Shown here piece by piece: positions 5,401 to 45,493 of a DNA stretch of 64,000 bases (its first letter is position 1; the number at the start of each line of letters is the position of its first letter). A program made the translations under genes and the position numbers. Source of the stretch: a virus (taxonomy: Duplodnaviria; Caudoviricetes); IMG/VR virus record IMGVR_UViG_3300019378_000009, positions 45,429 to 109,428 of that record. One strand, 5' to 3'. The notes under the pieces were generated by a model, which searched no databases, had not been told where the DNA came from, and worked only from the letters and a program-made list of their open reading frames with translations.

Positions 5401-6330
5401 CATATAGAAAATAAAGCAAGAGCAGAAATCTTATCTGATTATTTGCATAAAACTTGTGAGCCAAAAAGTCGTTTGACATTACAGAATTTTGCTATGTTAA
5501 TTGCACATAACCTTATTCCGCAAGAATATAGTTATCAAATTAGAGTATATAATTTTACCAAATATATTCGCAAACAAAAGTTAGCAAGCAGTTATATTTT
5601 GGACTCAGTTGCGATGGATTTTTATATGGAAAATAACTATCCAATGACTTTTGTAAAACAAATGACCAATACAGATGGCATGATTGTAAATACAATTTCT
5701 AAAACTACTTGGGACAGCATATATGAAAGTGAAATGAATAAAGTTCGCGCTTTTATAAAAAGCAATCATGATGTTCTATTGAATAACTTAAATGAACAGT
5801 TGTTCGCGGCTGAGTGGAATAAGTATGCTAGCGGCGATGAGTTAAAATGGGAGCTTGATTCTATGAGTTTCTATTATAGCGGACATCCACTAACTAAGGT
5901 AGAATTGCCTATTGAAATTTCTGGAGTAAAAGACTTGGTTGAGAACGAGTTTGATGGCTTTTGGACAATCAAAGGTAAGCAAGTGCCTAAATATAGATTG
6001 AGAACCATTATTGGCGCGGTTATTGATAAAGATACCACTAAAGGTACATTTACTTTGTCGTGTCCAGACGGAGTAATTAATGTTAAGGTATTTAAGCAAC
6101 AATTTGCTCGATATGCGCACACTCTTTCTGAAACAGATGAAGAAGGAAATAAGACAGTGTTAGAAAATAGTTTCTTTGATAAGGGCACTTTTTTGGCTGT
6201 TACAGGCATTTTAAAAGGTGACACTTTTATGCCTAAAACTTATAGAAGCACTGGTTTTGATCCAATATTAAAAATTGTATTACAAGAAGATGGTTCATTA
6301 GATTATCTTATGCGCAAGGCGGAAGAATGA
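2401..6330 (+). CDS. dnaE: DNA polymerase III alpha subunit (DnaE type)
   Basis: PHP domain (HNHS, AITDH, TACLGG, DSHY), GPARGSAG, PDIDID catalytic motif, HASG, KYDYL, HhH (GISRVG) and C-terminal OB-like region. Confidence 0.96.
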   Translation: MNINTYASLHNHSEISNLKLIDSINKIEDLIQYAVDLGLAGVAITDHDSVGGHVRAWNYYNSLPEEVRNNFKLILGNEIYLCRSDLTAETHQKGEKFYHLILIALDDIGHEQIRELSTRAWSRSYMKAIMRTPTYSEDLFDIIGANPGHVIATTACLGGYCGSKYALREYEAIERHLGMMEELFGKENFFIELQPSKQSDQLMYNKYMAATYWDRYNFICTTDSHYLKKDDAAIHKVFLNSKSSGDREVDSFYASAYMMGFKEIQEYFDNANMHDEFMQMAANTLSICERVQGYNLKQNSIIPKIKYENNSESVLAVNSFIEWAQTITSDVDYILKMFTEVNPADVYMLYLVSQGWHKIKDLPNQEKYIVELNYECEQLYKISKQLEQSMSDYFITMAKMIDIMWEEAGTLVGPARGSAGSSLIAYLLGITQINPLTQPVELPFWRFLHAERPGLPDIDIDTEADKRVAVFNKVRDYFQSLGGDMIHVCTYGTEGSKSAIKTAARGLGIDDDVVSYFSSMIPNERGFDWTLKQCYLGDDDHRAIPAFKAEMDKYPMLWKVASAIEGMITRLGCHASGVLALNQPIWKNNAAMKTSKGILVTAYDLEDTEQLGGVKYDYLTVQALDKIHVCMNWLLEDKHIEWQGDLRKTYTKYISPDAINYTDKGMWDSLCNKEIPSTFQFDTAQGGQAVNLIQPHSLLELLTGNSVMRLMAQDGGELPLEIYAKHKADINIWYRKMREANLNDVEIQILESHLLPVYGVAASQESMMKLAMDDKIAGFTIGEANILRKAVAKKKRDLLEKGKNLFYQKGLERGTRLELLDYVWNVQIMTQAGYSFSDIHTTAYSYIAIQEMNLCYFYPDIYWKTACLSTDAGAINAEDFYNLNEQNIVTATEEEDKREQNKVQYGKMASAIIKLQEFTEVALPDINSARFGFTPNEQDNSVMFGLRGISRVGEPIIQAILAKRPFTSLEDFCERMVDEDGKKQISKDRVVNLIKAGAFNHIENKARAEILSDYLHKTCEPKSRLTLQNFAMLIAHNLIPQEYSYQIRVYNFTKYIRKQKLASSYILDSVAMDFYMENNYPMTFVKQMTNTDGMIVNTISKTTWDSIYESEMNKVRAFIKSNHDVLLNNLNEQLFAAEWNKYASGDELKWELDSMSFYYSGHPLTKVELPIEISGVKDLVENEFDGFWTIKGKQVPKYRLRTIIGAVIDKDTTKGTFTLSCPDGVINVKVFKQQFARYAHTLSETDEEGNKTVLENSFFDKGTFLAVTGILKGDTFMPKTYRSTGFDPILKIVLQEDGSLDYLMRKAEE

Positions 6331-7460
6331 TGATAGTTTTAATTTTAGATTTAGATTGGATATTTGATAAAAGCGAATTACCAAATGTAGATTGTATGAA
6401 GCTGTCGTCATTTCACAAGCAGCGCAAAGACACTGTATATTTTGTAGGAGATATGTCTGAGCTAACCATGACATATGATAGATTGTATGTATTCGGTGAA
6501 TCGGACAGCACTCCCACGATGAGTTCAAAAATTTTAAATGATGAACGCACAGTATTATTTGGAAAAAGATTTGAGTTATGTGGTGCTAAAAAGTTGGGTA
6601 CGGTAGTTATGGGATGTCGCCCTGATTATTTGCTTTATGATGTAACAGATGAAAAAAGTAACTCATATATAAAAGCTAATTTTGTAACTTTTTATACTGA
6701 TTGCGGCGAAAAAATACAAAAGCGACAATCTTGGAAAAATACAAAAAAGGGTGTAAAGCGTACTATAGTTACTGATACTACTTTATGGCGGCAAAAACCA
6801 GAAGAAATTGAACAGTGTTTTGAAGAATTAAAAGGCGAAAAAAATATTGTTTTTTTAGCACCAATTTCCATTAAATTTTTAATCGACAACAGAAGTGTTC
6901 AAGAAAAATTTTTTAGATTACATTTCTCAAAAGGTACAAAATTTAAGTGGAGAAATGATATTGGTAGCGACGAACAATCAGCACAAAAAATTGTGTCATT
7001 TTTAAATGATTTTCGTAAACATACAAAAAGCAACATTGGTGCAATCCCAATTCGCGCTATAGAACAGGGCGAAGTAGAATTGGAAAGTTTAAAACGACTT
7101 ATTAAAGTTTTTGCCATATTTAAACAAAATAAAATTAAATGCTTTTTGCCGCCAATAGAACATTTGGAGCGTATTACATTTCAATGGTTGCGTTCTTGGT
7201 GTGAAAAAGGATTTGAAAACAGTTTTATTGAGGAAATGGTATTTTTTGCTTCTGCTTCAAAAGGCACTAGATGGTTTCATATTATAAATGAGCCAAAATA
7301 TTGGGGTACGCAAAAAACGAAGTTTTTAATTAACTTATTGTGTTTTAATGAATGGAGAGAACTATTGCCACAAATGAGCGTACAATGGGGCAATAATAGC
7401 ATTGACTGTTCTTGTATAGACTTCAATATAATAGACAAATACGCATTTTCATTAATATAG
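6327..7460 (+). CDS. Hypothetical protein, possibly a degenerate radical-SAM-like protein
   Basis: PNVDCMKLSSFHK and RPDYLLY recall a phage radical SAM family, but no CxxxCxxC is present. Confidence 0.45.
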   Translation: MMIVLILDLDWIFDKSELPNVDCMKLSSFHKQRKDTVYFVGDMSELTMTYDRLYVFGESDSTPTMSSKILNDERTVLFGKRFELCGAKKLGTVVMGCRPDYLLYDVTDEKSNSYIKANFVTFYTDCGEKIQKRQSWKNTKKGVKRTIVTDTTLWRQKPEEIEQCFEELKGEKNIVFLAPISIKFLIDNRSVQEKFFRLHFSKGTKFKWRNDIGSDEQSAQKIVSFLNDFRKHTKSNIGAIPIRAIEQGEVELESLKRLIKVFAIFKQNKIKCFLPPIEHLERITFQWLRSWCEKGFENSFIEEMVFFASASKGTRWFHIINEPKYWGTQKTKFLINLLCFNEWRELLPQMSVQWGNNSIDCSCIDFNIIDKYAFSLI

Positions 7461-8194: not shown

Positions 8195-8895
8195 GTATTT
8201 CAAGAAACTCTGTTCTTGAAACTTTGACGCAAAAAGGTTTTAAATGCACTAATATACAAGAGTATAAAACTTTAGATACTGTACTACAATTAGAGTGTTC
8301 TGTTGGACATAAAATTTGTGCAGACTTTCGTACTGCGCGAGACGATAGATTTTATTGTCCCATATGCGAGGGTAAGAAAAGTTTAGGCACGCTTGTGTTT
8401 CATAAAGAACCACCAAAGAAAAATGGCAAGCGTATTGTTGCCATTGATAATGCAACCAAACATGCAGGCGTGGCAGTATTTGACAATGGTAAATTAGTAC
8501 ATTATGAATTGAAAGAGTTCGAAGGCGAACTAATTGATAGACTGCTTGCAAATCGTAACTACATACGAGATGTAGTAATTAAGGGTTGGCAAGCTGATTT
8601 AATTGTATTGGAAGATATACAATTGCAGAAAAATGTTACTATCTTTAAGACCTTATCTATGTTGAGAGGCAGTTCTATGGTTGCTATTAGAGAGTGCGGA
8701 ATCACTTGTGAGGTTGTTCCTAGCGCCACTTGGAGGTCTCATTTTATGATTAAGGGTGATCGAATTGCGGAAAAGGCTCAAGCAATAGATAAAGTTATGG
8801 ATATGTATGGCGTTAAGGTTGTAGACGATATTGCAGAAGCGATATTGTTAGGTAAATATTCTGCTGACGCAGCAAAAGTTACCAAGTTGTTTTAA
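8191..8895 (+). CDS. RuvC-like Holliday junction resolvase with N-terminal zinc-ribbon domain
   Basis: VAIDNATKHAG, IVLED and DDIAEAI acidic motifs; CxxGH...CPIC at the N-terminus. Confidence 0.8.
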   Translation: MSISRNSVLETLTQKGFKCTNIQEYKTLDTVLQLECSVGHKICADFRTARDDRFYCPICEGKKSLGTLVFHKEPPKKNGKRIVAIDNATKHAGVAVFDNGKLVHYELKEFEGELIDRLLANRNYIRDVVIKGWQADLIVLEDIQLQKNVTIFKTLSMLRGSSMVAIRECGITCEVVPSATWRSHFMIKGDRIAEKAQAIDKVMDMYGVKVVDDIAEAILLGKYSADAAKVTKLF

Positions 8896-8897
8896 TG

Positions 8898-8934
8898 AAA
8901 AAAGGACAGTATAATTACTGTCCTTTTCTTTTTT
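8898..8934. terminator. Bidirectional intrinsic terminator between the convergent replication and structural operons
   Basis: AAAAGGACAGTA-TAAT-TACTGTCCTTTT hairpin with A/T tracts on both sides. Confidence 0.85.
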
Positions 8935-11539
8935 ATATAGATTTAATTAATTTTGCCAATATGCTTTGGTAACGACTAGGTTGTTCTACTGTTACTGTAT
9001 CTTTTAGGGGCTCTCGTAATATTCTATTAATACCAACTACCCGTATCTCGTCAGTGAAAATTTTATCTAAGATTTCAGCAGCAGTAACTGAAGTTTCTTT
9101 ATCTATATTATTAATATATTTATAATAATCTACTAGTTCTTCTTGTAAGTTTTCTAAGTCCCCCTCTAATTGAGCAAGTTGTTCTTTTTGACCTTGTTTA
9201 AGAGCGTACTCATAAAGTGCCGTTGCTTTTTCTATTCTATTAGTAATATAATTATAAGGAATGGCATTTAAACTATCTTTATTATAAACTTGTATTACGC
9301 TACCAACAGAAAGTCGAGGTAAGGCAATGCGTTCTAACATACCAATATCTAACACTGTTAAAGAATGTGATTCTTTTATTTTATTTATGTCTGCAAAATG
9401 AGTTACTGCTTGATTATATAAGCTAATTGAATTTAATTCATCTGTATTACTATAAGTTTGCTCATAAATATATTGTCCATAATTTTGATACAAAATTTTA
9501 AAGACTTGTTGATTAATTTGTGTTTGTATTGTGTCGAACTTATTTTTAATACCATTAGAACTGATTGTTTCTGGTTTAGGTGCATATTTATTTATTAAAG
9601 AGACAATTAATTCATATGCTCCTGGCGCAAAATCTCTATTGATTTTAAAAGAGAAACGAGAACATAAAGTTTGAGCAGTTTTAATTAGTCCTGTATAATA
9701 TACATACTCTTCATTAAAATTATCGCCGTCTTCCACAGAATACAATTCTAAAATTTTGCTTTGATACATATTAATGTGTTCTTGAGTATCATTTATAAGT
9801 TTTAAGAAATAACTACTAAAAACAGAAGAGTTATTAGGTATATCTAATTCATCAGAATAACCTAATTTTTGTATAATATCAAAATATTTAGAATTTTTAA
9901 TAACATTTTCTAAATCAAGCATAGTTTTACTGATATTATTTAAATAAGTATCCCAGGATGTGTCTCTAGCCTTTTTATTAGAATTTAATTCTTCCTCATA
10001 AGCAGAGCAAGCAGCTGCATAATTTTCTGCATAACTAATAAACATTTGTCGCAATTTGAACAATTTTCCTGTATAAGTATATAATTCTTCAGAATAATAC
10101 TGAAGCTGTATGTTTAAATTACGATATGTTGTGTGTATTAATGAGTTTAAATACTCCCAATCATTTATACTCATTTTTCCACGAAAAGGAGAAAAATCTA
10201 TTAAAAATTGTCCTAAATAGTCATTCTTTTGTGTTATAGAAAAAAATTCTTTTAATTCATTTTCTATTTGCGTTTTTACTTTTTGCCGATATTCTACTAT
10301 ATCTGTGTTATTTTGATAAATGGTTGCAGAAATATTATTACTATCTAATTGTCCATTAAGATAGTATTGTAATTCTACATCATATAAGGTATTATTATTC
10401 ACTACATACCCTTCTACTCCAAAAGGATTATTTGCCTCTGGATTAATTGGAAATGTATACAAATGATAAGAAGAATTTGTTTTGGAGACAGTCTCAAATG
10501 AAATTTCTCCAAGATATTGTCCTTTAGTATCATTATAGCGGACAATATATGTTGCTTTATCCATTAATTCTGTTTCTTTATTTGCGCCAATTGTGCATCG
10601 AACAATAGGAACAAAAGCGGCAGAAGGAGTATAATTTTTTATCATATCACTAACCGCGCCTTCAATATCATTCCAATTTGCAAATTGCCCTCCGTTTGAT
10701 ATTGTATCTGCTATATATCTTTTTACAAAGGTCGGCAAAGGAGGTACCATAGTAATTTGTTTTTCATCTGCATCTGTTCCTCCAGATACGTGTAATATAG
10801 TAGTTAATTCTGTACCCTCATAAGAGGACGTGTAATTATGCAAGTTGTATTCCGGAGCATAACGATAACCTGAAAAAGTTTTATTTTTATAATCAACAAA
10901 ATCTAACAGCCTTGTGTTATAATTTACAATTAATTCTGCACCTACTATATTGCAAGCTTCTATGATGGCGTTATAAGGATTACTATTGTTTATTTCAAAA
11001 GTAAATTTTTTAGATGGCAAAGTTAAATCTTGAGTTTGAGAGGTTACAGACCATTTGTAATCTAAAAAGTTATCTTTTAAAATTTCTCGCGTAATTTGAT
11101 AAATATTTTTAGGTTGTAATAAATCTGAGTTAGATGCATTAATAGTCGAATAACTATAATTTATATTGTGCTTTGCCCATAAATATGTTATTTCATCTTC
11201 TGCAGTAATGTTTAATATAGAATTAAGTTCAGAATTTTCTGGTTGTATGTCTTTTATAATTAGTTCTATTTTTTTTTGTTGGTCTATAATTATATACATG
11301 CGGGCGCCGATAAAATAATACGACAACAAAGGATTACTAGATAAAATATTTACGCCAGAAGCTTCATCTTTAAGCATTTGTTTAGCAACTAAAGAAAAAT
11401 TTAAGGTATATTGGCTATGTTTACCTTCATTTAATTGCTCATTATAAGTTGAAAATTGTAAAGTTTCATTATTGTTTATGGGAGAGGAGACTGGTATCCA
11501 ATCTCCTCCTACATCTAAAAATATAGTAAACTCTCTCAT
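8933..11539 (-). CDS. Tail tip / baseplate hub (Tal-like) protein
   Basis: 868 aa, last gene of the tail operon; NPYNAIIE...YNLHNYT...TILHVSGG pattern resembles siphophage tail-tip proteins. Confidence 0.6.
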   Translation of the reverse strand: MREFTIFLDVGGDWIPVSSPINNNETLQFSTYNEQLNEGKHSQYTLNFSLVAKQMLKDEASGVNILSSNPLLSYYFIGARMYIIIDQQKKIELIIKDIQPENSELNSILNITAEDEITYLWAKHNINYSYSTINASNSDLLQPKNIYQITREILKDNFLDYKWSVTSQTQDLTLPSKKFTFEINNSNPYNAIIEACNIVGAELIVNYNTRLLDFVDYKNKTFSGYRYAPEYNLHNYTSSYEGTELTTILHVSGGTDADEKQITMVPPLPTFVKRYIADTISNGGQFANWNDIEGAVSDMIKNYTPSAAFVPIVRCTIGANKETELMDKATYIVRYNDTKGQYLGEISFETVSKTNSSYHLYTFPINPEANNPFGVEGYVVNNNTLYDVELQYYLNGQLDSNNISATIYQNNTDIVEYRQKVKTQIENELKEFFSITQKNDYLGQFLIDFSPFRGKMSINDWEYLNSLIHTTYRNLNIQLQYYSEELYTYTGKLFKLRQMFISYAENYAAACSAYEEELNSNKKARDTSWDTYLNNISKTMLDLENVIKNSKYFDIIQKLGYSDELDIPNNSSVFSSYFLKLINDTQEHINMYQSKILELYSVEDGDNFNEEYVYYTGLIKTAQTLCSRFSFKINRDFAPGAYELIVSLINKYAPKPETISSNGIKNKFDTIQTQINQQVFKILYQNYGQYIYEQTYSNTDELNSISLYNQAVTHFADINKIKESHSLTVLDIGMLERIALPRLSVGSVIQVYNKDSLNAIPYNYITNRIEKATALYEYALKQGQKEQLAQLEGDLENLQEELVDYYKYINNIDKETSVTAAEILDKIFTDEIRVVGINRILREPLKDTVTVEQPSRYQSILAKLIKSI

Positions 11540-35123: not shown

Positions 35124-35495
35124 TTCTGGAGAATAGGTAATTTGGAAATAGAAATGCAGAATGGATTTAAGAATGTTGGAATTGGATTTTGGTTACATGT
35201 TGAGATTGGATTTTTCGTTTCATACGATCTTTTTTCCACAACAGGCCCGGGTTGTTCATAATTTCGTAATATTTGTCTAACACTCCCCCCCCGTCGTTAT
35301 GCACAAAAAAAGAGCATACCCGGGCATACTTTTGTGCATATTGCCTAAAGTTTGTTAAAATTTTAACATTATTCATATTTGATGCTTTTGTGCATATTGT
35401 ACAAAAAATTTATTCTTTTTTCTACATAGAAAGTATTGACAAAGATAAAAATATATGGTAAAATAGGGTAGAAAATAAATCAAGGAGCTTTTCAA

Positions 35496-35900
35496 ATGGA
35501 TACATTAATACTTGCAAAAATCGACCGTTTTTATGCAAATAACGGACAAGAGGCGGAGCGAGTTTTCCGCTACACTTACACGGGCAAGCTTACAAAAGCC
35601 GATAACATTAAGCACACCGACGGCGCCGACTGCGACGACATTCAAATCAAGAGCGCGAGAGCAAGCGTCTGCAAGGGCACAGATATCAATGCATATCTCT
35701 CAAATGACAAAGCAAGCCGTTTTGCTTATGTTGTCAAGGATATGAGCATAGCCTACATAATGACAAAGGCACTATATATTGAGTTTGTAAATGCTTTCGC
35801 TACAATCACAACTGAGAGCGCAAAAAACGGTGGTGCTACAAAGTTAAGGCTTAAAAGCGAAAGCAAGGCGATGCTTCAATGGTTAGCGGAGAGGGTGTAA
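35496..35900 (+). CDS. Small PD-(D/E)xK-like nuclease-fold protein
   Basis: N.G...E, D and IQIK motif set; own promoter, RBS and terminator. Confidence 0.55.
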   Translation: MDTLILAKIDRFYANNGQEAERVFRYTYTGKLTKADNIKHTDGADCDDIQIKSARASVCKGTDINAYLSNDKASRFAYVVKDMSIAYIMTKALYIEFVNAFATITTESAKNGGATKLRLKSESKAMLQWLAERV

Positions 35901-36172
35901 ACCCTCTCCCTTTTGCATTGTTGAAATTTAACGAGCGCGTCCGGGCGCGACCCGGTAACTTGCACAAAAAGTTGGGGTGCACGCAGTATAAATTTGTGCA
36001 AAATTTTTGAGGAAGAGGATTGACTTTTTCAGTGATTTGTGGTATAATATAAGTGTCAAGGGGCGAGGGAAACCCAAGTTGCAACAGGGTAGTGAACGGA
36101 ACTTGAAAAAAATTTTTGAAAAATTTTTCAAAAACCCCTTGACAAATCCACGAAAGTGTGGTATAATATAAG

Positions 36173-36429
36173 TGTAAGAGGGAAGGACAACAAACTGTAC
36201 TTGCACCACCGTCACCAAGAGTGTGAGAGCGGAGTGCAAGAGGGGAGAAGTCACCTTGCAAGGCTTCCCTTTCACAACCGAGGTAATGAGGTCACTCTCC
36301 GCAGACTCGCAAAGCCATAAGAGGTGGGAACGCAAGTTGTTCTGTAAGACGAGCCCTCGGTATAGAAATCAGTAGACCAAAGACAACACTCAACCCTTGA
36401 AAGAGTGTGTGGACGGAGCGAGGGTATAT
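36173..36429 (+). ncRNA. Candidate structured non-coding RNA upstream of tRNA-Ser
   Basis: Strong promoter with no RBS/ORF; stems CTTGCAC/GTGCAAG, CCTTGCAAGG, ACCGAGG/CCTCGGT, GAAC-GCAA-GTT, ACACTC/GAGTGT. Confidence 0.5.
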
Positions 36430-36534
36430 GAGAGGGTAGCTCAAGGGTAGAGCGGCATCCTGCTAAGATGCGGCAGACGAGGTCAGTGCACGGACTAGTC
36501 CACTGTATGGGTTCGAATCCCATCCCTTTCACCA
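36430..36534 (+). tRNA. tRNA-Ser(GCT)-like RNA with oversized variable region
   Basis: Acceptor GAGAGGG/CCCTTTC, D arm GCTC/GAGC, anticodon arm GCATC-CTGCTAA-GATGC, T arm ATGGG-TTCGAAT-CCCAT, encoded ACCA. Confidence 0.8.
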
Positions 36535-36671
36535 TAAAGACTTGGCGCGGCCGGTGTCGCGCCGGGCCGCCCGGGCTGCCGAAAATTTTTTCAGCTTTTT
36601 CGCAAAAACACTTGACAAACAAATAGTTTTGTGGTATAATATATACAGAAATAAAGAATGAGGTGTCTATT

Positions 36672-36854
36672 ATGAAACACGTGGCTTACAATCTTGTCAC
36701 TCACGAAGTACTTTTTTCCAATCATTCCAATGCTTTAAAGCGCAGAGTTACCCAAATAGAACGTTGGAATATAGCTAATGGTTATGGCAAGGGCAAATGG
36801 ATATTCGCCCACGGCAAGCAGTGTGAATATAAAATTGCTGCCAAGCTCCACTAA
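36672..36854 (+). CDS. Hypothetical early protein
   Basis: Own promoter and GAGGTG RBS. Confidence 0.7.
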   Translation: MKHVAYNLVTHEVLFSNHSNALKRRVTQIERWNIANGYGKGKWIFAHGKQCEYKIAAKLH

Positions 36855-37004
36855 AAAGGAGCTAGCGCCCGGGCGGCCGACTGGGATTGTTAAATTTTTC
36901 ACAAACAAGCAAGTGGGAAAATTTTAAAAAATTTTTAAAAAAGAGCTTGACAAATCAAAGCTTTTGTGATATAATATACTTGTAAGAAAGAGAGGATACA
37001 ACCA

Positions 37005-37487
37005 ATGTATAGACTTGATAGAATGAGAAAACAATACGAACAATTCACTGCCGCAGAGGGTTACATCATCGGCTTCCGTGATGGCGACAAGGTGTATGCG
37101 GTAGACCTTGATAAAATACCTCGCAGATACACCAGAATACAAAAGGAAAGCAAGAGCAACGGTGGTGGCTATGGCTTGTATGTAAAAATCACCGAACCTG
37201 CTATCCTGTCCGAGCTACTGCCGAAAGCCTACTATGTATGCGAGCTTGCCGACCTCATAGACAATGACGGACACCTCAACGGCAAGGGCGAACTCAAACA
37301 CTTTAACAAAGGTGTTATGTTTGAAAAGAAAATATGGGAACTCAACGGTATGGAGTTCAGGGGCAAGGACAGTGTAAGATTTTACGAAAGTGGTGATATT
37401 ACCATTGACGGAAAAGAAATACAAATTAAGTTTGAATGGGCAAGAATTTGTTATGACCGCACACTAAAAAGACTGACCGCCAAATAA
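37005..37487 (+). CDS. PD-(D/E)xK-like nuclease-fold protein, circularly permuted relative to 35496-35900
   Basis: NKG..FE, GD and IQIK motifs in the C-terminal half; ES..NGG in the N-terminal half. Confidence 0.55.
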   Translation: MYRLDRMRKQYEQFTAAEGYIIGFRDGDKVYAVDLDKIPRRYTRIQKESKSNGGGYGLYVKITEPAILSELLPKAYYVCELADLIDNDGHLNGKGELKHFNKGVMFEKKIWELNGMEFRGKDSVRFYESGDITIDGKEIQIKFEWARICYDRTLKRLTAK

Positions 37488-37592
37488 GGCGGCCGGTCCC
37501 GGCCCGGGCGGCCGTTCATAATTTATTTACATTTGAGGGGTTGACTTTTCCCTCTCGGTGTGATATAATATATAGAAAGTGAGGACACGAAT

Positions 37593-37736
37593 ATGTTGCA
37601 AAAGAATATAGAAAAACAAGAGCGAAAAAATCGCAAAACTTGGCAGGGATATTTCACTCGCAAGACACCAACCAAGAAAGAAAAAGAAGAAAAAAATCGT
37701 AAAAAATACAAAAAAGGTATTGACAAAGACGATTGA
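37593..37736 (+). CDS. Small very basic protein (47 aa, not in ORF track)
   Basis: Promoter, GAGG RBS; MLQKNIEKQERKNRKTWQGYFTRKTPTKKEKEEKNRKKYKKGIDKDD. Confidence 0.7.
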   Translation: MLQKNIEKQERKNRKTWQGYFTRKTPTKKEKEEKNRKKYKKGIDKDD

Positions 37737-37783
37737 ATGTGTTATAATATATATGTAAGAAAAAGAAAGACGAGGTAATCAAA

Positions 37784-38038
37784 ATGGAAACCACTTACAG
37801 TGTAGAAGCAAAGTGCGATAAGACAAGCGGAATGAATGTCGAGTTCAAGGGCATTGACAATTTGGAAAGTGCGATGGCGTGTGTAACCACTCTTGAGTTG
37901 GCATTTCCAAATATCACCGTCATTTGTGAACAGACGGGCGAAATAATGTATCACCGTTTGATGTCGTTTGAGATTTTCAATCCCAGTATGGAAATGGGTA
38001 AGGCAATCTTCAAGGCAGAGTGTGATATGTACTTTTAA
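37784..38038 (+). CDS. Hypothetical early protein
   Basis: Own promoter and GAGGT RBS. Confidence 0.75.
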   Translation: METTYSVEAKCDKTSGMNVEFKGIDNLESAMACVTTLELAFPNITVICEQTGEIMYHRLMSFEIFNPSMEMGKAIFKAECDMYF

Positions 38039-38540
38039 AGGACAAGGCGCGAATCGGTAGTTATATCGGTTCGCGCCAAACACATTCTTCTCGGTTAGCA
38101 TATGCTAACTCGTGCCCGGGCGCTTTGTGCACTTTGTACATATTTGGGGCGAAAACTTTTTTATTTTTGTGTAATTTGACGATTGACTTTTCACTCATTA
38201 TATGATATAATATTAGTGTCAAGAGGGGAAGGGGTATAAACGGTCGCCACTTGCAAGCCTTCCATTGATAAAGGTGCCGAAAAATTTTTTGAAAAATTTT
38301 TCAAAAACCTCTTGACAAACCATAAGTTTTGTGGTATAATATAAATGTCAAGGGGCGGTGTTAAGCAACCGAGAAGGACACACATAAGCGCAATCGTGTT
38401 TGATGAAGTCGGGACTGCCGAAAAAATTTTTGAAAAACTTTTCAAAAACCCCTTGACAAATCACCAAAAGTGTGATATAATATAAATGTAAATAAGGAGA
38501 GCCGACACTCCATTAACAAACGGAGAAAAGGAAGAAAAAT

Positions 38541-38870
38541 ATGGCAACTATCGCATTTATCAACGAAAACGGAAATGTATCGGCAAAGGTTCGTGAGCGT
38601 CTTAAGTCGCAGACTATGACCGCTATCACAAAGGCTATGGACAAGTGCAACCTTGAAACCATAGTCAATGCAGACAAGGGCTTGTCTATCCCTCTCGGCA
38701 CTGACAAGACCAACGGTAACCCCATTTACGCACACATCTCGGTTGTGATTTCACAACACAACCCTGCGGAAAAGACCGCAAAGACCAAGACCAAGACCAA
38801 GAAAAAGGTCGCAGACGAGGTCGCTCTCCCCGACATTTTCGGGGCAGTAGACGAGGGTGAGGGAGAGTAA
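38541..38870 (+). CDS. Hypothetical early protein, family B copy 1
   Basis: Paralogue of 46726-47076 (F.NE.GNVSAK.R, VNAD.GLSI, LPDIF). Confidence 0.85.
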   Translation: MATIAFINENGNVSAKVRERLKSQTMTAITKAMDKCNLETIVNADKGLSIPLGTDKTNGNPIYAHISVVISQHNPAEKTAKTKTKTKKKVADEVALPDIFGAVDEGEGE

Positions 38871-39015
38871 TCTCCCTCTCACAAACACCTGTCCGCCATT
38901 GGCGGACGGCGCCCGGGCGGCCGGAATTGTGAACAAATTGTTAACTTTTATAAAACTATTGACAAATCAAAACAAATGCGATATAATATTAGTGTAAGAA
39001 AGAGAGGAAAACAAT

Positions 39016-39255
39016 ATGACAATTAAAGAGTTGCCACTTATTTATAATGTTGATAAGGTTGTAGTGTATAATAAAAGAGGTCTTGTATCTTCCTTTTGGA
39101 GAAACTCACAATTTAGTCTTGCCGAGCAAGTCGAATATAACCGCACACAGTTAATCGGTGCAGAAAATGTTCTTAATGAAAAAATTGAGTCAATGAGTAT
39201 TGGTGTATCGGGTATTGCCGACAATGTGATAACTTTAGAAATTTATTTAAAATAA
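39016..39255 (+). CDS. Hypothetical early protein
   Basis: Own promoter and RBS. Confidence 0.75.
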   Translation: MTIKELPLIYNVDKVVVYNKRGLVSSFWRNSQFSLAEQVEYNRTQLIGAENVLNEKIESMSIGVSGIADNVITLEIYLK

Positions 39256-39327
39256 ATTTTCCAAAACCCCTTGACAAATCGGTTTGTTTGTGATATAATA
39301 TAGGTGTAAGAAAGAGAGGTAACAACT

Positions 39328-39576
39328 ATGATTTCAAGAAAAGAAGCCGAAAGAACTACTGATGCATACTACGAGGTTGAAAGAGTACTTGGAGAGGTTG
39401 ACGATATGATGCTCACCAAAGAAGAAATCTATGCAAGATTTCCGTGTGATTGCGATGGAGTGCCATACATCACCATCTCCGCTTTTGAAAATGCTCTCCG
39501 CAACCTAATGCATATGCGACACATAGACAGTGTATGCGTAAGGGGTGTTCGCCACTACGGAGCCGTCAGAAGATGA
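39328..39576 (+). CDS. Small winged-helix-like protein
   Basis: LTKEEIY...ISAFENALRNL...I....VRGVRHY pattern; own promoter. Confidence 0.5.
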   Translation: MISRKEAERTTDAYYEVERVLGEVDDMMLTKEEIYARFPCDCDGVPYITISAFENALRNLMHMRHIDSVCVRGVRHYGAVRR

Positions 39577-39713
39577 CGGCTTGGCGGCCCGGGCGCTTTG
39601 TGCACTTTGTACACTTTTCCCCGAAAAATTAGTGCATTTTTGTGCAACTTGCCATATTGACAAATGCGGAAAAATGTGATATAATTATAGTACCAAAGGA
39701 AAGAGAGGAACAT

Positions 39714-40166
39714 ATGATGCTTGGAAACACCATTCTTGCACTCAACGACATCAAGGAACTTGAAGTCAAAATCTCCGACACCAAGAACGGAGAATGTATC
39801 CACCAAACCCAACGAAACGGCATAGGTGCGAAACTCCGTGAAGCACTTGCCAACGATTTCTTGCAGATTTTTCCCTACTCGGAAAATGCAGAGGACATCG
39901 TGGCTTATGTAACGGACGACGGGCTTGTGCTTGAAATTCCCAACCAAAGCGTCAAAGACGGCATTTCCAATGTGAACGGCAGTGGCGCAATCACTGTGGA
40001 ACTCGGCTTTACGGTTAAGAACTTGGAATACAATGCACAAGACGAAAGCGAAAGCCACAAGGTCAAGGTTGCCGAAAAAGAAGCCAAAGCAAAGGAACTT
40101 GCCGAAAAGAAGGCAAAGAAAATTGCGAAAGACAATGCGGCTCGCAAGAAGGCAAAGGGAGAGTAA
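39714..40166 (+). CDS. Hypothetical early protein, family A copy 1 (Lys/Ala-rich tail)
   Basis: Paralogue of 43279-43752 and 47772-48266. Confidence 0.85.
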   Translation: MMLGNTILALNDIKELEVKISDTKNGECIHQTQRNGIGAKLREALANDFLQIFPYSENAEDIVAYVTDDGLVLEIPNQSVKDGISNVNGSGAITVELGFTVKNLEYNAQDESESHKVKVAEKEAKAKELAEKKAKKIAKDNAARKKAKGE

Positions 40167-40306
40167 TCTCCCTCGCCAAGCCGACCAAATGTAAAGTTTG
40201 GTTGGCGCGGCGCCCGGGCCGTTCATAATTTATTTACAATTTAGGTATTGACAAGTCAGTTATTTTATGATATAATATATACATCAAGAGAAAGAAGGAT
40301 AATAAT

Positions 40307-40555
40307 ATGAAATTTCAGCAAATCAGTAGAAGCAAAAGACACGCCAAATTTTATGACGCTTGCACAGGGGAAATCTTTTTCGCAAAAGGTTTCACTTATA
40401 TGAAAACCGATGATAATGATATGGTTAATGCCGTTCAATTAGACGGTATTGAGAGGGGAGAATTAACATTCTTTGAAGAAGGTGAAGATATTGACATTCT
40501 CAAAAGCGAAGTCGTTATCAACTACGAAGCAAACGAGGTGTTGTCGTGGATTTAA
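40307..40555 (+). CDS. Hypothetical early protein
   Basis: Own promoter and RBS. Confidence 0.75.
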   Translation: MKFQQISRSKRHAKFYDACTGEIFFAKGFTYMKTDDNDMVNAVQLDGIERGELTFFEEGEDIDILKSEVVINYEANEVLSWI

Positions 40556-40677
40556 CGGAATGCCAACTTTTGTTGGCACGCCCGGGCGGACGTTCACAAA
40601 TTGTTTACAATTTGGATATTGACAAATCGTTTTATTTGTGATATAATATATACACAAGGAAAAAGGAGATAAACAAA

Positions 40678-40980
40678 ATGAAAGTAAATCTTATGGTAAA
40701 TTGGGAAGAAAAGGAAATTCTCACTGTCCAGGAACTTGACGAACGCATTGATGCGAGAGTTGACAAGGTGATGCTGGACGCCGATGCTTATGACGAGCAT
40801 CTTGATGACTATATTGACTGTAACTATACCAAGAGAGAACTCTTTGATGCTTTGTCTGGTAGCGATGCAGAGAGAGAAAGGGTACTTTCCGACATTCGTT
40901 CAGGAGTTGGCGAGAGCATTTACGATTGGGTGAATATGGATATCAGTGGCAATTTCCACGATGTAACCATAGAGGTCTAA
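40678..40980 (+). CDS. Small acidic protein
   Basis: Own promoter, AGGAG RBS, Asp/Glu-rich. Confidence 0.8.
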   Translation: MKVNLMVNWEEKEILTVQELDERIDARVDKVMLDADAYDEHLDDYIDCNYTKRELFDALSGSDAERERVLSDIRSGVGESIYDWVNMDISGNFHDVTIEV

Positions 40981-41175
40981 CAAACAAGGCGCGAACTCAA
41001 AAAGTTGGGTTCGCGCTTTCTACATAAAATAGATTGTTAAATATTTAACAAGGGCGTGCCCGGGCGGTTCATCGTTTTGCACAAAATGAAGTGTCAAACA
41101 AATAAAAACTTTGTGCAATATTACTACTTGACTTTCTCATTATTTTATGGTATAATTAGTATGTAAGAAAGAGAG

Positions 41176-41460
41176 GTGATTGTTATATTACTTGCAACAA
41201 TGTGGAACTCAATCAAAGATATATTTCAACCGATATACTGTAAGACTTGTAAGTCAAAGCATTACGCGACAATCGGTTTCATATGGCACTTATGGAGAAA
41301 ACACGGTATCAAAATCACAAGGCGAGATTTTAAGTTTTTGGCAAAGTATAACTTAATAACAAGGTTAGTTGTCGGTGTGTTGTGTGCCGTGTTCTTTGTT
41401 CCATTGCTCGTGTTAAAGTTTATCTTGCTTCCGTTGTATTACTTATACAAAATTTTATAA
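41176..41460 (+). CDS. Putative membrane protein with C2H2-like motif
   Basis: CKTC...HLWRKH followed by a hydrophobic C-terminal helix; start uncertain. Confidence 0.6.
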   Translation: MIVILLATMWNSIKDIFQPIYCKTCKSKHYATIGFIWHLWRKHGIKITRRDFKFLAKYNLITRLVVGVLCAVFFVPLLVLKFILLPLYYLYKIL

Positions 41461-41473
41461 AGGAGAATAAAAA

Positions 41474-41686
41474 ATGATTACAGTAGAAGTTACCGCAGAA
41501 GTCTTATATACTTGCGAACTCACCGCAGAGGACGAAGAAAAGGTAAAGGCATTTGCCGAAGAAAATGATGTTGAGTTGGCGGTTGCCGTTGGGGAACTCT
41601 ATTCAGTAGGAGAAATCAATTTATACAAAAATTCCGTTGAAAGCGATTTCAGTACCGAAAGAATTGATGACGCATACGAAGAGTGA
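41474..41686 (+). CDS. Small acidic protein
   Basis: AAGGAG RBS, Glu-rich. Confidence 0.75.
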   Translation: MITVEVTAEVLYTCELTAEDEEKVKAFAEENDVELAVAVGELYSVGEINLYKNSVESDFSTERIDDAYEE

Positions 41687-41838
41687 GTTAGCATATGCTA
41701 ACTCGCCCGGGCGCATTGTGCATACTGCACAACATATAAGGCGCGGATTGTAAAAAGTTTGTGTATATTGCCATATTGACTTTTGGTTTATTATATGATA
41801 TAATAAGAATGTAAAAAGGAAGAAACGAGGTAAACAAA

Positions 41839-42336
41839 ATGAATTGGTTTGAATTTTCTTTGAGCGGTTTCCTTGCCGTATTTATCGTGCTTAATATTGT
41901 CAATGTAATTATCCAAACTGTCAAGTCTATTGCTACTATCAAGTGCAGTGCTTGGGCGGCAGCAGGTGTTAATGCACTTGCCTATGGTTTATATACCATC
42001 GTGGTGGTATATATGAACGCAGACGGACTTGGTCTGTTTTGGAAAGCAATAATTATAGGTGTTGCCAACTTGCTCGGTGTGTATGTTGTCAAAGTTATTG
42101 AGCAGAAGAAAAGAAAAGATAAACTTTGGAAAGTTGAAGCAACCGTTGACCGCACCTCTATTACTCGCTTGGATAATAACCTTGACGAAGCACACATACC
42201 CCATAACTATGTAGTTGCAGGCAAATACGGAATTTTTAATTGCTACTGTGCAACCCAAAAGGAAAGCCTTGTAGTAAAAGAAATTTTGGATATGTATGGT
42301 GCAAAATATTTTGCAAGTGAGAGTAAACCCCTCTAA
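41839..42336 (+). CDS. Membrane protein resembling DUF2179/DUF5698 (UPF0316-like)
   Basis: Three hydrophobic helices (NVIIQTVKSI, NLLGVY) plus a small soluble C-terminal domain. Confidence 0.55.
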   Translation: MNWFEFSLSGFLAVFIVLNIVNVIIQTVKSIATIKCSAWAAAGVNALAYGLYTIVVVYMNADGLGLFWKAIIIGVANLLGVYVVKVIEQKKRKDKLWKVEATVDRTSITRLDNNLDEAHIPHNYVVAGKYGIFNCYCATQKESLVVKEILDMYGAKYFASESKPL

Positions 42337-42480
42337 ACGAGGGGCTAGCGCCCGGGCGGTTCGTCATTTTGCACAATAAACAAATAAGAAATTAAAAAAT
42401 GTTTGTGCAATATGCCATATTGACTTTTCCATTTGTTTGTGATATAATATATATGTAAGTGAAAGAAAGGAACCACTCCA

Positions 42481-43122
42481 ATGATAGTAATTATGTTTGA
42501 CACCGAAACCACCAACGAAATTGATTGCCCTTTTTGTTACGATTTTGGCTTCTCCGTCCTCGACACCGACAAGCAAAAAATTCTTGAAAAGCACTCCTAT
42601 GTTGTAGCAGATATTTTTTGCGACAAATCGCTTATGGCTTCCGCCTATTTTGCAGATAAGATACCGCAATATTGGGAAGATATTAAAAGCGGAAAAAGAA
42701 TGCTCCGCAAATGGTCAACCATTAAAGCAATAGTCAGAGAGGTAATGGCACAATATAACATTGATACCGTAATTGCCCATAATGCTCGCTTTGACTACTG
42801 TTCAACCGCCACTACGCAAAGATACCTCACCTACTCTAAATACAGATACTTTTTCCCTTATGGCACGAAATTTGTTTGCACTCTCAAAATGTCAAGAGAG
42901 GTATTTGGTAAAGACGAAAATTATATTGCTTTTTGCGAAGAAAATAATTACCTCACCACCTATAACAAACCTCGCTTTACTGCCGAAATAATTTACCGCT
43001 TTCTCACCAACAACACCGATTTTGTTGAAAGCCATACGGGGCTTGAAGATGTGGAAATTGAAACGGAAATTTATCTTGAATGTATAAAGAGAATGCCCTC
43101 GGTTGACGGACTGCTTTGGTAA
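42481..43122 (+). CDS. DEDDh 3'-5' exonuclease
   Basis: FDTETT, AHNARFD and ESHTGLEDV motifs. Confidence 0.88.
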   Translation: MIVIMFDTETTNEIDCPFCYDFGFSVLDTDKQKILEKHSYVVADIFCDKSLMASAYFADKIPQYWEDIKSGKRMLRKWSTIKAIVREVMAQYNIDTVIAHNARFDYCSTATTQRYLTYSKYRYFFPYGTKFVCTLKMSREVFGKDENYIAFCEENNYLTTYNKPRFTAEIIYRFLTNNTDFVESHTGLEDVEIETEIYLECIKRMPSVDGLLW

Positions 43123-43278
43123 GTGGTCCGCCAATGGCGGACAGCGCCCGGGCGTTTGTGCACCTTGCACAAAAACACCGCCCAAAACTTACAAAAATTT
43201 GTGCAATATGCCATATTGACTTTTACCCAATTATGTGGTATAATAAGTATGTAAGAAAGAGAAAGAGAGGTAACAACT

Positions 43279-43752
43279 ATGCCCAACTTTATTAACACCA
43301 ACACCGCCCTCAATGCCCTTAAAGGTACTACCGTTAAGGTAAGTCAGACCAAGAATGGCGAGGCTATCCACCAGACTATGCGAAATAAAATCGGTGCGGT
43401 ACTGCGTGAGGCTCTTTTTGCAGACCTTAAAGAGATTTTCCCCACCTCTACCAACCCCGAAGATATCGTAGCATACCTCACCGCAGACGGAATTATTCTC
43501 GAGATTCCTAACGAGAGTGTAAAAGACACTATCACCAATGTAAACGGTAGCGGTGCAATAAGCCTTGAAATCGGCTTTACTGTTAAAAATCTTGAATACA
43601 ACGCACAGGACAGTGCAGAGGCATACGAGGTAGACAGAGCCGAAAAAGAGGCGAAAGCCAAAGCCAAAGAAGAGGCAAAGGCGAAGAAAATCGCCAAAGA
43701 CGAGGCAGACCGCAAAGCCAAAGCCAAAGCAAAGGCGGAAAAGGGGGCATAG
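43279..43752 (+). CDS. Hypothetical early protein, family A copy 2
   Basis: Shares HQT.RN, LEIPN.SV and GSGAI..E.GFTVKNLEYNA with the other copies. Confidence 0.85.
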   Translation: MPNFINTNTALNALKGTTVKVSQTKNGEAIHQTMRNKIGAVLREALFADLKEIFPTSTNPEDIVAYLTADGIILEIPNESVKDTITNVNGSGAISLEIGFTVKNLEYNAQDSAEAYEVDRAEKEAKAKAKEEAKAKKIAKDEADRKAKAKAKAEKGA

Positions 43753-43905
43753 TCCCTCTTTTCTTTTGCGGAAGATTGTTAAAAATTTAACAAGCCGGCC
43801 CGGGCCGCGTTCATAAAAAATTCATAAATAAATTTTGAAAAAACTATTGACAAATTGACTTGTTTATGATATAATATATACACAAAGGAAAAGGGAGAAA
43901 AGAAA

Positions 43906-44223
43906 ATGATTGAAAAAGAATTTGACTTAACCACTCTCACAGATGAAGAACTTGCCGATTTTCATACGGCATGGGTAAACGAAGCAAAACGAAGAGATAA
44001 ACAACGCAGACGAAATGCCGCATTGCTCTTATACGAGGCGGTAGGTCAATTCATTGACACTATGGCGCACTATGACTTTGTAAAGTTGGTATCAATGGAG
44101 TTTGTCAATGAAGAGGGCGAGGATTGTGAGTTTGATATCAATGTTTTCGGTGAAGAGGTACTTACCAACATTCGTGAAACTTTGCGGTTAGAGATAGGTC
44201 AGTATAGCGGAGAGGACGAGTAA
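43906..44223 (+). CDS. Small acidic protein
   Basis: Own promoter and RBS. Confidence 0.75.
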   Translation: MIEKEFDLTTLTDEELADFHTAWVNEAKRRDKQRRRNAALLLYEAVGQFIDTMAHYDFVKLVSMEFVNEEGEDCEFDINVFGEEVLTNIRETLRLEIGQYSGEDE

Positions 44224-44390
44224 TCGTCCTTTTCGGCATTTAATTTGTGGCAAAAGTTCTGCCCGGGCATTCGTCATTTTGCACAAAAATCAGTTCGCGC
44301 GGTGTGAAAAGTTTGTGCATTTTGACTATTGACTTTTTACTGATTATGTGGTATAATATGTATGTAAGTAAGAGAGAGGAGAACATCAAA

Positions 44391-44546
44391 ATGACTTGCC
44401 ATTATACCGTCAAAGACCTTATTGAATATCTTGAAACCTTACCCAAAGATACCGAACTTAAAATTGAGAGAGCAAGCGGCAATCTCACGGACGGCTTCGA
44501 CCTTGAATACGAGGACGGCAACCTTATCCTCTGCAATGCTTATTAA
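44391..44546 (+). CDS. Small hypothetical protein
   Basis: TVKDLIEYLETLPKD, a common small phage protein start; GAGGAG RBS. Confidence 0.7.
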   Translation: MTCHYTVKDLIEYLETLPKDTELKIERASGNLTDGFDLEYEDGNLILCNAY

Positions 44547-44562
44547 AGAAGGGAGAACGAAA

Positions 44563-44766
44563 ATGATGTATGTATATCTTGTTTATGAAGAGTGCCACGG
44601 TTTGGTAATGGTCTGTGGCTCTGAAATGGGAGCAATCAACAAGGTTAATAGCCTCGCCCCTAACTATGGCATTGACCCCGAAACAACACCGCTTGACTAT
44701 AACTCCCATCACCATTATGGTTGGGAAGGTGCGGTATATTTTGTGAAAGAGGTGGTATTTGACTAA
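44563..44766 (+). CDS. Small hypothetical protein
   Basis: GGGAG RBS; coupled to the next ORF. Confidence 0.7.
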   Translation: MMYVYLVYEECHGLVMVCGSEMGAINKVNSLAPNYGIDPETTPLDYNSHHHYGWEGAVYFVKEVVFD

Positions 44767-45005
44767 TGATAGTAACAAAATATGAACATCTAATAGACGG
44801 CTCTGAATATGACGAAGAAGATGTCAGAGATGTCGCGGCGGAACATATCACGTGGGATAACTTGAACGAGGCGTTAGACGATTTTGATTTTCATTGGTTG
44901 TGGCAACATTTAACCCAAGAGGGACAAATGGAACTATATGACAAAGCAATTGAAACCTACCAAGAAGAATATTTTTCCGCCATTGAAGTAGAAGAGGACG
45001 AGTAA
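44766..45005 (+). CDS. Small highly acidic protein
   Basis: TAATG coupling; Asp/Glu-rich; terminator follows. Confidence 0.75.
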   Translation: MIVTKYEHLIDGSEYDEEDVRDVAAEHITWDNLNEALDDFDFHWLWQHLTQEGQMELYDKAIETYQEEYFSAIEVEEDE

Positions 45006-45493
45006 ATCGTCCTTTTTCTTTTATCAAAATACAAAAGATAATCCATGGCAGAAATCGTGCCCGGGCTAACATGCGCCCGGGCCGCAAATTTGAACAAATC
45101 AAGTCTATTTTATTAACAAATTGTAAACTTTTCAATCAGAAGCAACACCTCCCTTCCACAGCTGTACACCGGATATCCCATTACCGTTACATGCCTCCCG
45201 AGTAATAAACCACCGGTAATAAGCAGCTATAAGCAGCAGCAGCACCACCTGTCCTTTGCCCATAAGCAGCAGCACAAATTTGACATAATTATTCAAATCC
45301 ACGAAAAAGCAGCTACAAGAAGCTGCAAAAATTTGAATTTTTATACGATTTATGATATAATATTTATAGAAAAAGAGGAAAAACAAGAAAAAATTACAAG
45401 CATTTCTGGAATATTTACGCATCGCCGCAGTAGGTGATAAAATAATGAATATGTAGATCTGGATATAATTATTACGAAAGGGGAAGCAAGAGA

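Follow-up and report, generated by a model that had tools for sequence, protein, structure and literature searches.

The closest described counterparts of the locus reported here are the promoter-early stem-loop (PeSL) cassettes of T4-type phages (Arbiol et al. 2010, PMC2839356; Comeau et al. 2014, PMC4122927), in which a terminator-like stem-loop and a strong host-sigma early promoter stand between small orphan genes of a plastic region, insertions or deletions (indels) and replacements that distinguish relatives have their ends at the junctions, exchange between neighbouring elements gives excised mini-circles, and no recombinase is known; the involvement of a specific binding protein was left open by the authors (PMC2839356; PMC4122927). 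Deletion endpoints in T4 have also been placed at GGGC, sometimes paired with GCCC, with a sequence-specific protein proposed to act there (Mosig et al. 1998, as summarised in PMC2839356). Here we describe an array of about 15 autonomous expression cassettes on one strand of a 64,000-nt stretch of the phage record IMGVR_UViG_3300019378_000009 (positions 45,429-109,428 of that record; the whole stretch is called the window, and coordinates are window positions), in which cassettes are delimited by the palindromic 8-mer GCCCGGGC. Comparison with related genomes identified this word as the apparently preferred joint for cassette exchange, deletion, duplication and reordering among the phages that share it.

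Exact copies of GCCCGGGC numbered 16 in the window, all between 36569 and 45082, and were found at the same positions as in an initial annotation made from the sequence alone. That annotation had estimated about 0.06 copies by chance, and the excess was borne out by 100 dinucleotide-preserving shuffles (mean 0.12, maximum 2). Its observations that the copies are intergenic and occur nowhere else in the window also held, as no copy overlapped a gene preceded by a ribosome-binding site and the whole 109,428-bp genome contained the same 16 copies and none besides; the word is therefore not evenly spread, and relatives confine their copies too. CCCGGG sites numbered 19 genome-wide, with 18 of them in the window at 35246-45076, and the tetramer CCGG was avoided across the genome (74 against 126 expected) with 19 retained inside copies. 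The near copies, put at about three, proved to be one-mismatch versions in array-equivalent positions (35245, GCCCGGGT; 35318, ACCCGGGC; 35939, GTCCGGGC), which lie at the left array edge, two before and one just behind the first array gene. All three decayed copies carried GC-to-AT changes, and G-to-C or C-to-G variants were seen at no array copy; a fourth one-mismatch match (33162, GCCCGTGC) lay outside the array. Over the 16 exact copies all 128 positions were identical and the flanks diverged from the first base outward, with no conservation outside the eight bases among the copies of the window or among 192 distinct ones taken from relatives. A full-text literature search for GCCCGGGC with phage returned no relevant paper.

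For comparison, 80 related loci were retrieved from IMG/VR with the exonuclease protein of the array. At least four GCCCGGGC copies were present in 23 of these loci, and five others, belonging to a more distant lineage, carried 10-16 copies of GGCCGGCC in the same architecture. In this second lineage the core often took the oriented form CCGGCC (for example CCGGCCCG), which means that some versions of the element are not palindromic; CCGG is retained by every variant word. In loci where either word forms an array, 14 of 76 intergenic breakpoints fell within 5 bp of a word edge, compared with 2.3 expected from intergenic resampling (a six-fold excess, with 0 of 2000 resamplings reaching 14). 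Removal of near-duplicate loci left roughly eight independent word-edge events, drawn from both word lineages, and, counted per base, breaks were several times as frequent at the word as in the promoter cores, which are longer and nearly identical. Breakpoints of gene gain, loss and reordering in relatives, proposed earlier as a check on the element, do map to the word.

Individual joints could be read directly. Loci L021 and L026 differ by a 1.8-kb cassette indel that has a copy at either end, and the overlap at the joint is only 11 bp. Logan contigs of two public bovine-gut runs, holding relatives at about 90-97% identity, included one set (X15) in which 38908 was joined to 39586 exactly at copies, with the two-gene cassette missing (record 10), and 41712 to 42359, again exactly at copies, with the cassette of the 165-aa gene missing; in another (X18, record 18) the block 39597-40219 was bounded by copies on both sides and set in unrelated flanking DNA. 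The flanks of these joints showed no homology beyond the word copies. A metagenome search with the 150-aa protein of the array gave one useful contig, L084, which carried five homologous cassettes in another order with the word at every joint. Within the window itself, 11 of the 13 longest internal repeats began 0-3 bp from the first base of a copy, among them a 595-bp duplication (39587-40157 and 43146-43723), and left palindromes and right box types combined freely, a GTCCGCC..GGCGGAC hairpin standing before two differing right flanks at 38911 and 43146.

The units of the array were found to follow the order given in the initial annotation: a stop codon, one or more hairpins, the 8-mer, operator-like boxes, a TTGACA/TGnTATAAT promoter, a ribosome-binding site and one to three small open reading frames (ORFs). 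At nearly every copy the end of a hairpin or palindrome was separated from the word by 2-5 nt, and the T-run of a canonical sense terminator was present in only 4-5 of the hairpins preceding copies. A promoter lay 28-73 nt downstream in 15 of the 16 exact copies with a downstream cassette, with the distance from word to -35 being 60-63 nt where TTGTGCA-type boxes accompany TTGACTTTT promoters, 28-41 nt where a GTTCATAATTTATTTACA-type box accompanies TTGACAAAT promoters, and 72-73 nt in two cases. Cassette-internal promoters (37720, 38312, 38453, 39271 and others) lacked the 8-mer and had an AT-rich palindrome upstream instead; the word therefore marks cassette boundaries and not promoters, and in this respect the earlier description of the unit has to be narrowed. 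The features of the array were as follows.

35245..35252, no strand: degenerate copy GCCCGGGT in the divergent stretch that separates the array from the leftward late operon, then a GTTCATAATTT-type box, which resembles the right flanks of exact copies
35318..35325, no strand: degenerate copy ACCCGGGC, 110 nt before promoter 35436, the first of the array
35496..35900, plus strand: first array gene, 134 aa, with a (D/E)IQIK patch in common with the 160-aa gene; canonical terminator 35888-35909
35939..35946, no strand: degenerate copy GTCCGGGC, after the terminator of the first gene
36020..36563, plus strand: non-coding unit with promoters 36020 and 36139, a leader, a tRNA-like gene (36430-36531) and a GC hairpin
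36569..36866, plus strand: cassette with 8-mer 36569, promoter 36612, 60-aa gene 36672-36854
36867..37501, plus strand: cassette with 8-mer 36867, promoter 36947, 160-aa gene 37005-37487
37502..38113, plus strand: cassette with 8-mer 37502, promoter 37541, 47-aa gene, internal promoter 37720, 84-aa gene 37784-38038
38114..38910, plus strand: cassette with 8-mer 38114, promoters 38183, 38312 and 38453, short non-coding stretches, 109-aa gene 38541-38870
38911..39586, plus strand: two-gene cassette with 8-mer 38911, promoter 38959, 79-aa gene, internal promoter 39271, 82-aa gene
39587..40211, plus strand: cassette with 8-mer 39587, promoter 39657, 150-aa gene (paralogue of 43279-43752)
40212..40579, plus strand: cassette with 8-mer 40212, promoter 40248, 82-aa gene
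40580..41057, plus strand: cassette with 8-mer 40580, promoter 40619, 100-aa gene
41058..41704, plus strand: cassette with 8-mer 41058, promoter 41128, 86-aa and 70-aa genes
41705..42349, plus strand: cassette with 8-mer 41705, promoter 41776, 165-aa membrane-type gene
42350..43145, plus strand: cassette with 8-mer 42350, promoter 42420, 213-aa DEDD exonuclease-like gene 42481-43122
43146..43797, plus strand: cassette with 8-mer 43146, promoter 43216, 157-aa gene; the 8-mer is the exact starting point of the duplication shared with 39587-40157
43798..44260, plus strand: cassette with 8-mer 43798, promoter 43847, 105-aa gene, canonical terminator 44208-44235
44261..45058, plus strand: three-gene cassette with 8-mer 44261, promoter 44329, genes of 51, 67 and 79 aa; terminator 44991-45017
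45059..45082, no strand: closing doublet of two 8-mers, 16 nt start to start, with no promoter behind

In several relatives the last two copies are likewise close, 21-37 nt apart. AT-rich palindromes of the GAAAAATTTTTGAAAAATTTTTCAAAAACCCC type stood directly before the -35 of word-less promoters (36100-36140, 36915-36945, 38275-38310, 38415-38452 and 39240-39270); they may be UP elements or CodY-box look-alikes. The palindromes GTTAGC..GCTAAC (38095-38110, 41689-41704) and TTGTTAA..TTAACAA (41035-41052, 43775-43792) lie to the left of the 8-mer here and to the right of it in relatives (L021, L022, L029 and L035), and behave like movable operator boxes rather than terminators. Unrelated genes were also found to share a gene-end device with the stop codon in a hairpin loop, such as GGGAGAG-TAA-TCTCCCTC or GGACGAG-TAA-TCGTCC (38855-38875, 40155-40175, 44210-44235 and 44990-45017), so that their last residues (GE or DE) are common to them. 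The non-coding unit at 36020-36563 had two perfect or near-perfect promoters and a leader of about 270 nt with no ORF preceded by a ribosome-binding site; its tRNA-like gene (102 nt) scored 56.1 bits against the Rfam tRNA model and was not called by ARAGORN, and by eye showed an anticodon loop GCU, an oversized variable region and an encoded CCA. The paralogous cassette proteins 39714-40166 and 43279-43752 (about 66% DNA identity) end in long Lys/Ala/Glu-rich AKAKELAEKKAKK-type tails, which may be nucleic-acid-binding, and a homologue of this pair, 76% identical, was present on L084.

The source genome is a single 109,428-bp contig with overlapping ends and 36.9% GC, classed by IMG/VR as having direct terminal repeats and given a completeness of 100% by CheckV. 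It encodes a replication set (PolC-like polymerase, DnaB-like helicase, RecJ-like exonuclease and Sak4-like annealing protein), together with an ATP-dependent ligase, two type II topoisomerase subunits, an anaerobic ribonucleotide reductase, GIY-YIG homing endonucleases and a portal protein. Up to 35115 the genes, including that for the portal, run leftward, and from 35496 all of them run rightward, with the GC skew changing sign at its minimum near 36 kb. The array comprises 20 small genes after strong ribosome-binding sites, and 21 plus-strand promoters (35436-44357) matched at least 11 of the 12 positions of the sigma-A-type TTGACA/TGnTATAAT consensus, 12 of them perfectly. Pfam and PHROG searches were blank for 18 of the 19 array proteins tested; the only solid family match was that of the 213-aa DEDD exonuclease-like gene, with a few others at E values of 0.002-0.009. 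Homologues in the 80 related loci were found for only 5 of 24 queried genes from the array and just downstream, with the 134-aa first gene represented in 9 loci. Searching IMG/VR with the 157-aa cassette protein yielded no relatives, the array had no megablast match among 50,697 phage records, an Rfam scan of the array found nothing beyond the one tRNA-like match, and no RNA dataset holding the phage was listed among public runs. With its consensus promoters, strong ribosome-binding sites and small, mostly family-less genes, the region is best explained as an array of early genes from a lytic phage whose promoters and ribosome-binding sites are of Firmicutes type; for the array genes we infer a host-takeover or anti-defence role from the early-type promoters and orphan content.

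Short palindromes were nearly absent from 35200-45100 (GATC 1 against 14.8 expected, CATG 3 against 27.6, ACGT 4 against 16.4 and TCGA 7 against 26.2), a depletion stronger in the array than in the remaining genome, which fits DNA that is the first to meet host restriction enzymes. After the closing doublet, about 400 bp (45083-45490) were without genes and rich in AAGCAGC-like repeats. Tandem repeats also terminate the contigs of several relatives about 2-9 kb past the exonuclease gene, beyond the array (left end of L021; right ends of L026, L044 and L058); together with the GC-skew minimum, these features hint at a genome end or origin beside the array.

Five complete relatives (112-140 kb) had all of their 6-12 GCCCGGGC copies within one early array of about 3-12 kb. 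Their DNA polymerases were 37-41% identical to that of the present phage, encoded at 2401-6327, and most shared core proteins 25-48% identical, whereas the exonuclease cassette was 51-64% identical in phages whose polymerases were 37-41% identical, a gap that fits horizontal cassette traffic among distant phages. The 8-mer was found 115-127 nt before the exonuclease start in 12 of 22 GCCCGGGC-rich loci (124 nt in the window), and upstream of the orthologous exonuclease in these 12 phages no other block was free of variation apart from parts of the -35 and -10, the boxes between 8-mer and promoter being entirely different. Topoisomerase subunits were 42-71% identical among GCCCGGGC genomes and 26-36% in others, while polymerase, helicase and RecJ were equidistant; this pattern is suggestive, though confounded by phylogeny. 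Subunits of one relative, G003, reached 65-71%, compared with 42-52% in the other GCCCGGGC genomes, and these values and those for the exonuclease suggest horizontal exchange of single genes among distant phages. Some relatives carried few or decayed copies, such as GCCCGGCGCC and GCGCCGGGCGC in G006, and others none. The words GCGGCCGC, GGCGCGCC and CCGATCGG seemed over-represented in some loci, but they occur there in coding or other contexts and were rejected as equivalents. One locus without boundary words, L057, had consensus promoters followed directly by a GC hairpin starting GGCCGGCC (CCGGCC...GGCCGG) and by no ORF (6545-6620, 8840-8920 and 11390-11470), units that look like small structured transcripts.

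Set beside the known systems, the locus has a strong host-sigma promoter, orphan genes in a hyperplastic region, and indel and replacement junctions that lie in the elements, all as in PeSL, and the comparison with PeSL drawn in the initial annotation fits well. It belongs to an unrelated phage group with Firmicutes-type signals and a PolC-like replication set, which makes it an analogue and not a member. Its core is an exact 8-bp GC palindrome outside the stem-loop, compared with the GGGG...CCCC stem of PeSL; the word is conserved across about 40% polymerase identity, with lineage replacements (GGCCGGCC/CCGGCC), and crossovers can be placed within 8-11 bp. The word-bounded array can be regarded, by analogy, as a variant of PeSL-type junction elements, the closest known system. 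GCCC and GGGC are the two halves of the present palindrome, and the T4 deletions likewise concern small non-essential genes in a plastic region; there the halves are separated inverted repeats seen in laboratory deletions, whereas here they abut in an exact 8-mer present 16 times. Integrons share the one-way array of small, exchangeable, mostly single-gene units with a recurring site beside hairpin-forming sequence, but the earlier analogy with them breaks down over the integrase and the design of the cassettes: no tyrosine recombinase is encoded in the complete genome, each cassette has its own promoter rather than a common Pc, and the site is an 8-bp exact word and not a 57-141-bp imperfect palindrome such as attC. 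In the host-takeover module of Bacillus phage SPO1 and the T5 pre-early region, numerous small early genes form short operons behind host-sigma promoters of great strength, and the layout of the array, a one-strand early-gene block beside a possible genome end or origin, recalls such modules; to our knowledge no invariant GC word has been described in them.

The crossover role of the word comes from the comparisons above, and from these we favour, at about even confidence, a reading in which GCCCGGGC is a crossover patch for short-identity recombination and the joint at which cassettes move. As the invariant left edge of the boundary promoter module, just behind the hairpin that closes the previous cassette, the GC-only 8-mer would be the most stable pairing patch within otherwise unrelated AT-rich DNA, and short-identity recombination between its copies would swap cassettes. 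The phage's own Sak4-like annealing protein, RecJ-like exonuclease and ligase would perform the exchange with no dedicated integrase, and continued movement between phages would be limited to cassettes with an intact copy, which would keep the word exact. Such a system would be a working analogue of the T4-type PeSL elements, with additional protein recognition possible. Consistent with this, the recombination proteins are encoded, and the lack of a visible recombinase reported for the window extends to the complete genome, in which the tyrosine recombinase family PF00589 had no match (controls matched) and neither a serine recombinase nor a Y1 transposase was found. Several results weigh against it. 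Breakpoints at the word amounted to only about 16-18% of those inside arrays, and relatives without the word were equally mosaic (4.99 blocks per 10 kb against 5.07 with the word, a crude comparison with few truly word-rich pairs behind it), so the word is a hot spot and not a requirement for mosaicism; within these limits, comparison supports the fixed crossover site in a modular platform put forward in the initial annotation. Eight bp is also very short for homology-driven exchange, and the promoters hold longer identical runs. Upstream of the exonuclease the word equalled or exceeded the -35 and -10 in conservation while the adjoining boxes were completely different, and this invariance, like the periodicity of about 10 bp in the spacing from word to -35, is more typical of a site read by a protein.

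That a protein acts on the boundary promoters through the word, as a read-through insulator, an early shut-off or an upstream activator site, with recombination there arising secondarily, since nothing else is shared at these sites, is possible though doubtful. It would account for a palindrome exact in every copy with flanks differing from the first base, for its invariance before the exonuclease in 12 phages so distant in their core proteins, for the use of a different GC word at the same position in the other lineage, and for the retention of CCGG in the copies of a genome that avoids it; word-less relatives shuffling as much as word-bearing ones is also in keeping with it. Spacings to the -35 peaked at about 31, 42, 52 and 62 nt (R 0.26, periods 9.5-10.5 nt, n=115), and those of the window fall into two fixed classes (28-41 and 60-63 nt), but the copies behind these values are paralogous and not independent, so the periodicity statistic is inflated. 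Equally strong internal promoters do without the word, relatives express the same exonuclease gene without it, and the word of the other lineage is often oriented and non-palindromic (CCGGCCCG). When all 182 ORFs of this genome were profiled phylogenetically against nine whole relatives, none was restricted to genomes bearing the word, and the complete genome lacks a ParB-type protein. The Noc-binding site has a CCCGGG core; as an identity for the word it was rejected, since AT flanks around the word and a ParB-type protein were both absent. We consider it unlikely that a dedicated or co-opted enzyme cuts and rejoins the word, staggered at its CCGG centre, in an integron-like capture without an integrase. 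Candidates would be the small E/D/QxK proteins (37005-37487 and 35496-35900) or the phage type II topoisomerase, and it is similarly improbable that the word and its CCGG-centred variants form the recognition or cleavage site of an unrecognised enzyme, a joint common to very distant gut and rumen phages. Junctions precise to 8-11 bp without flanking homology and the retention of CCGG in all variant words would suit such an enzyme, as would the proposal of a sequence-specific protein for the T4 deletions at GGGC/GCCC (PMC2839356); most breakpoints nevertheless lie away from the word. For the topoisomerase, the higher identity of its subunits among GCCCGGGC genomes may mirror overall phylogeny. 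The T4 topoisomerase mediates illegitimate recombination in vitro.

The 160-aa protein (37005-37487) belongs to a family of 150-160 aa that heads many arrays in both word lineages and has invariant residues E107, D131, Q140 and K142, and a language-model look-alike search gave a weak lead to PDDEXK_14. Against its being the enzyme, Pfam was blank, its confident AlphaFold model (predicted local distance difference test, pLDDT, 90.5) matched no solved fold (no Foldseek hit in the PDB at E<=0.001; VIA Z<=2.8, the best value being 2.8), and the distribution of the family does not follow that of the word: tblastn found no member in G001, G002 or G006 and did find one in G007. The protein may be a nuclease with an undescribed fold; since no structural neighbour was found, it is the motifs that suggest this. 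BLASTP of the 134-aa against the 160-aa protein aligned the 15-residue IQIK patch alone (E 0.036), and a circular permutation relating the two was not established, this patch being the sole match. Very improbable, finally, is a word without a sequence-specific role, as a GC clamp, a restriction or methylation relic, or the hitch-hiking end of a duplicated promoter module. The word does consist of G and C alone in AT-rich surroundings and is always carried along with the promoter module, but a clamp would tolerate the G/C swaps that array copies lack, hitch-hiking cannot keep all eight bases while the adjoining bases fully diverge, and in an array that avoids short palindromes such as GATC and CATG the retention of a restriction site 19 times calls for an explanation.

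Early orphan genes are the store from which phages draw tools for host takeover and anti-defence, and their fast turnover is poorly understood outside T4-type phages. In this large uncultured group of gut and rumen phages, whose core proteins are only distantly related, an exact 8-base word marks the joints of exchangeable units. If the word is a true joint, it would define a shared gene pool and a simple rule by which accessory cassettes can be found and delimited in metagenomes; if a protein reads the word, that protein would be a new early regulator or recombination factor.

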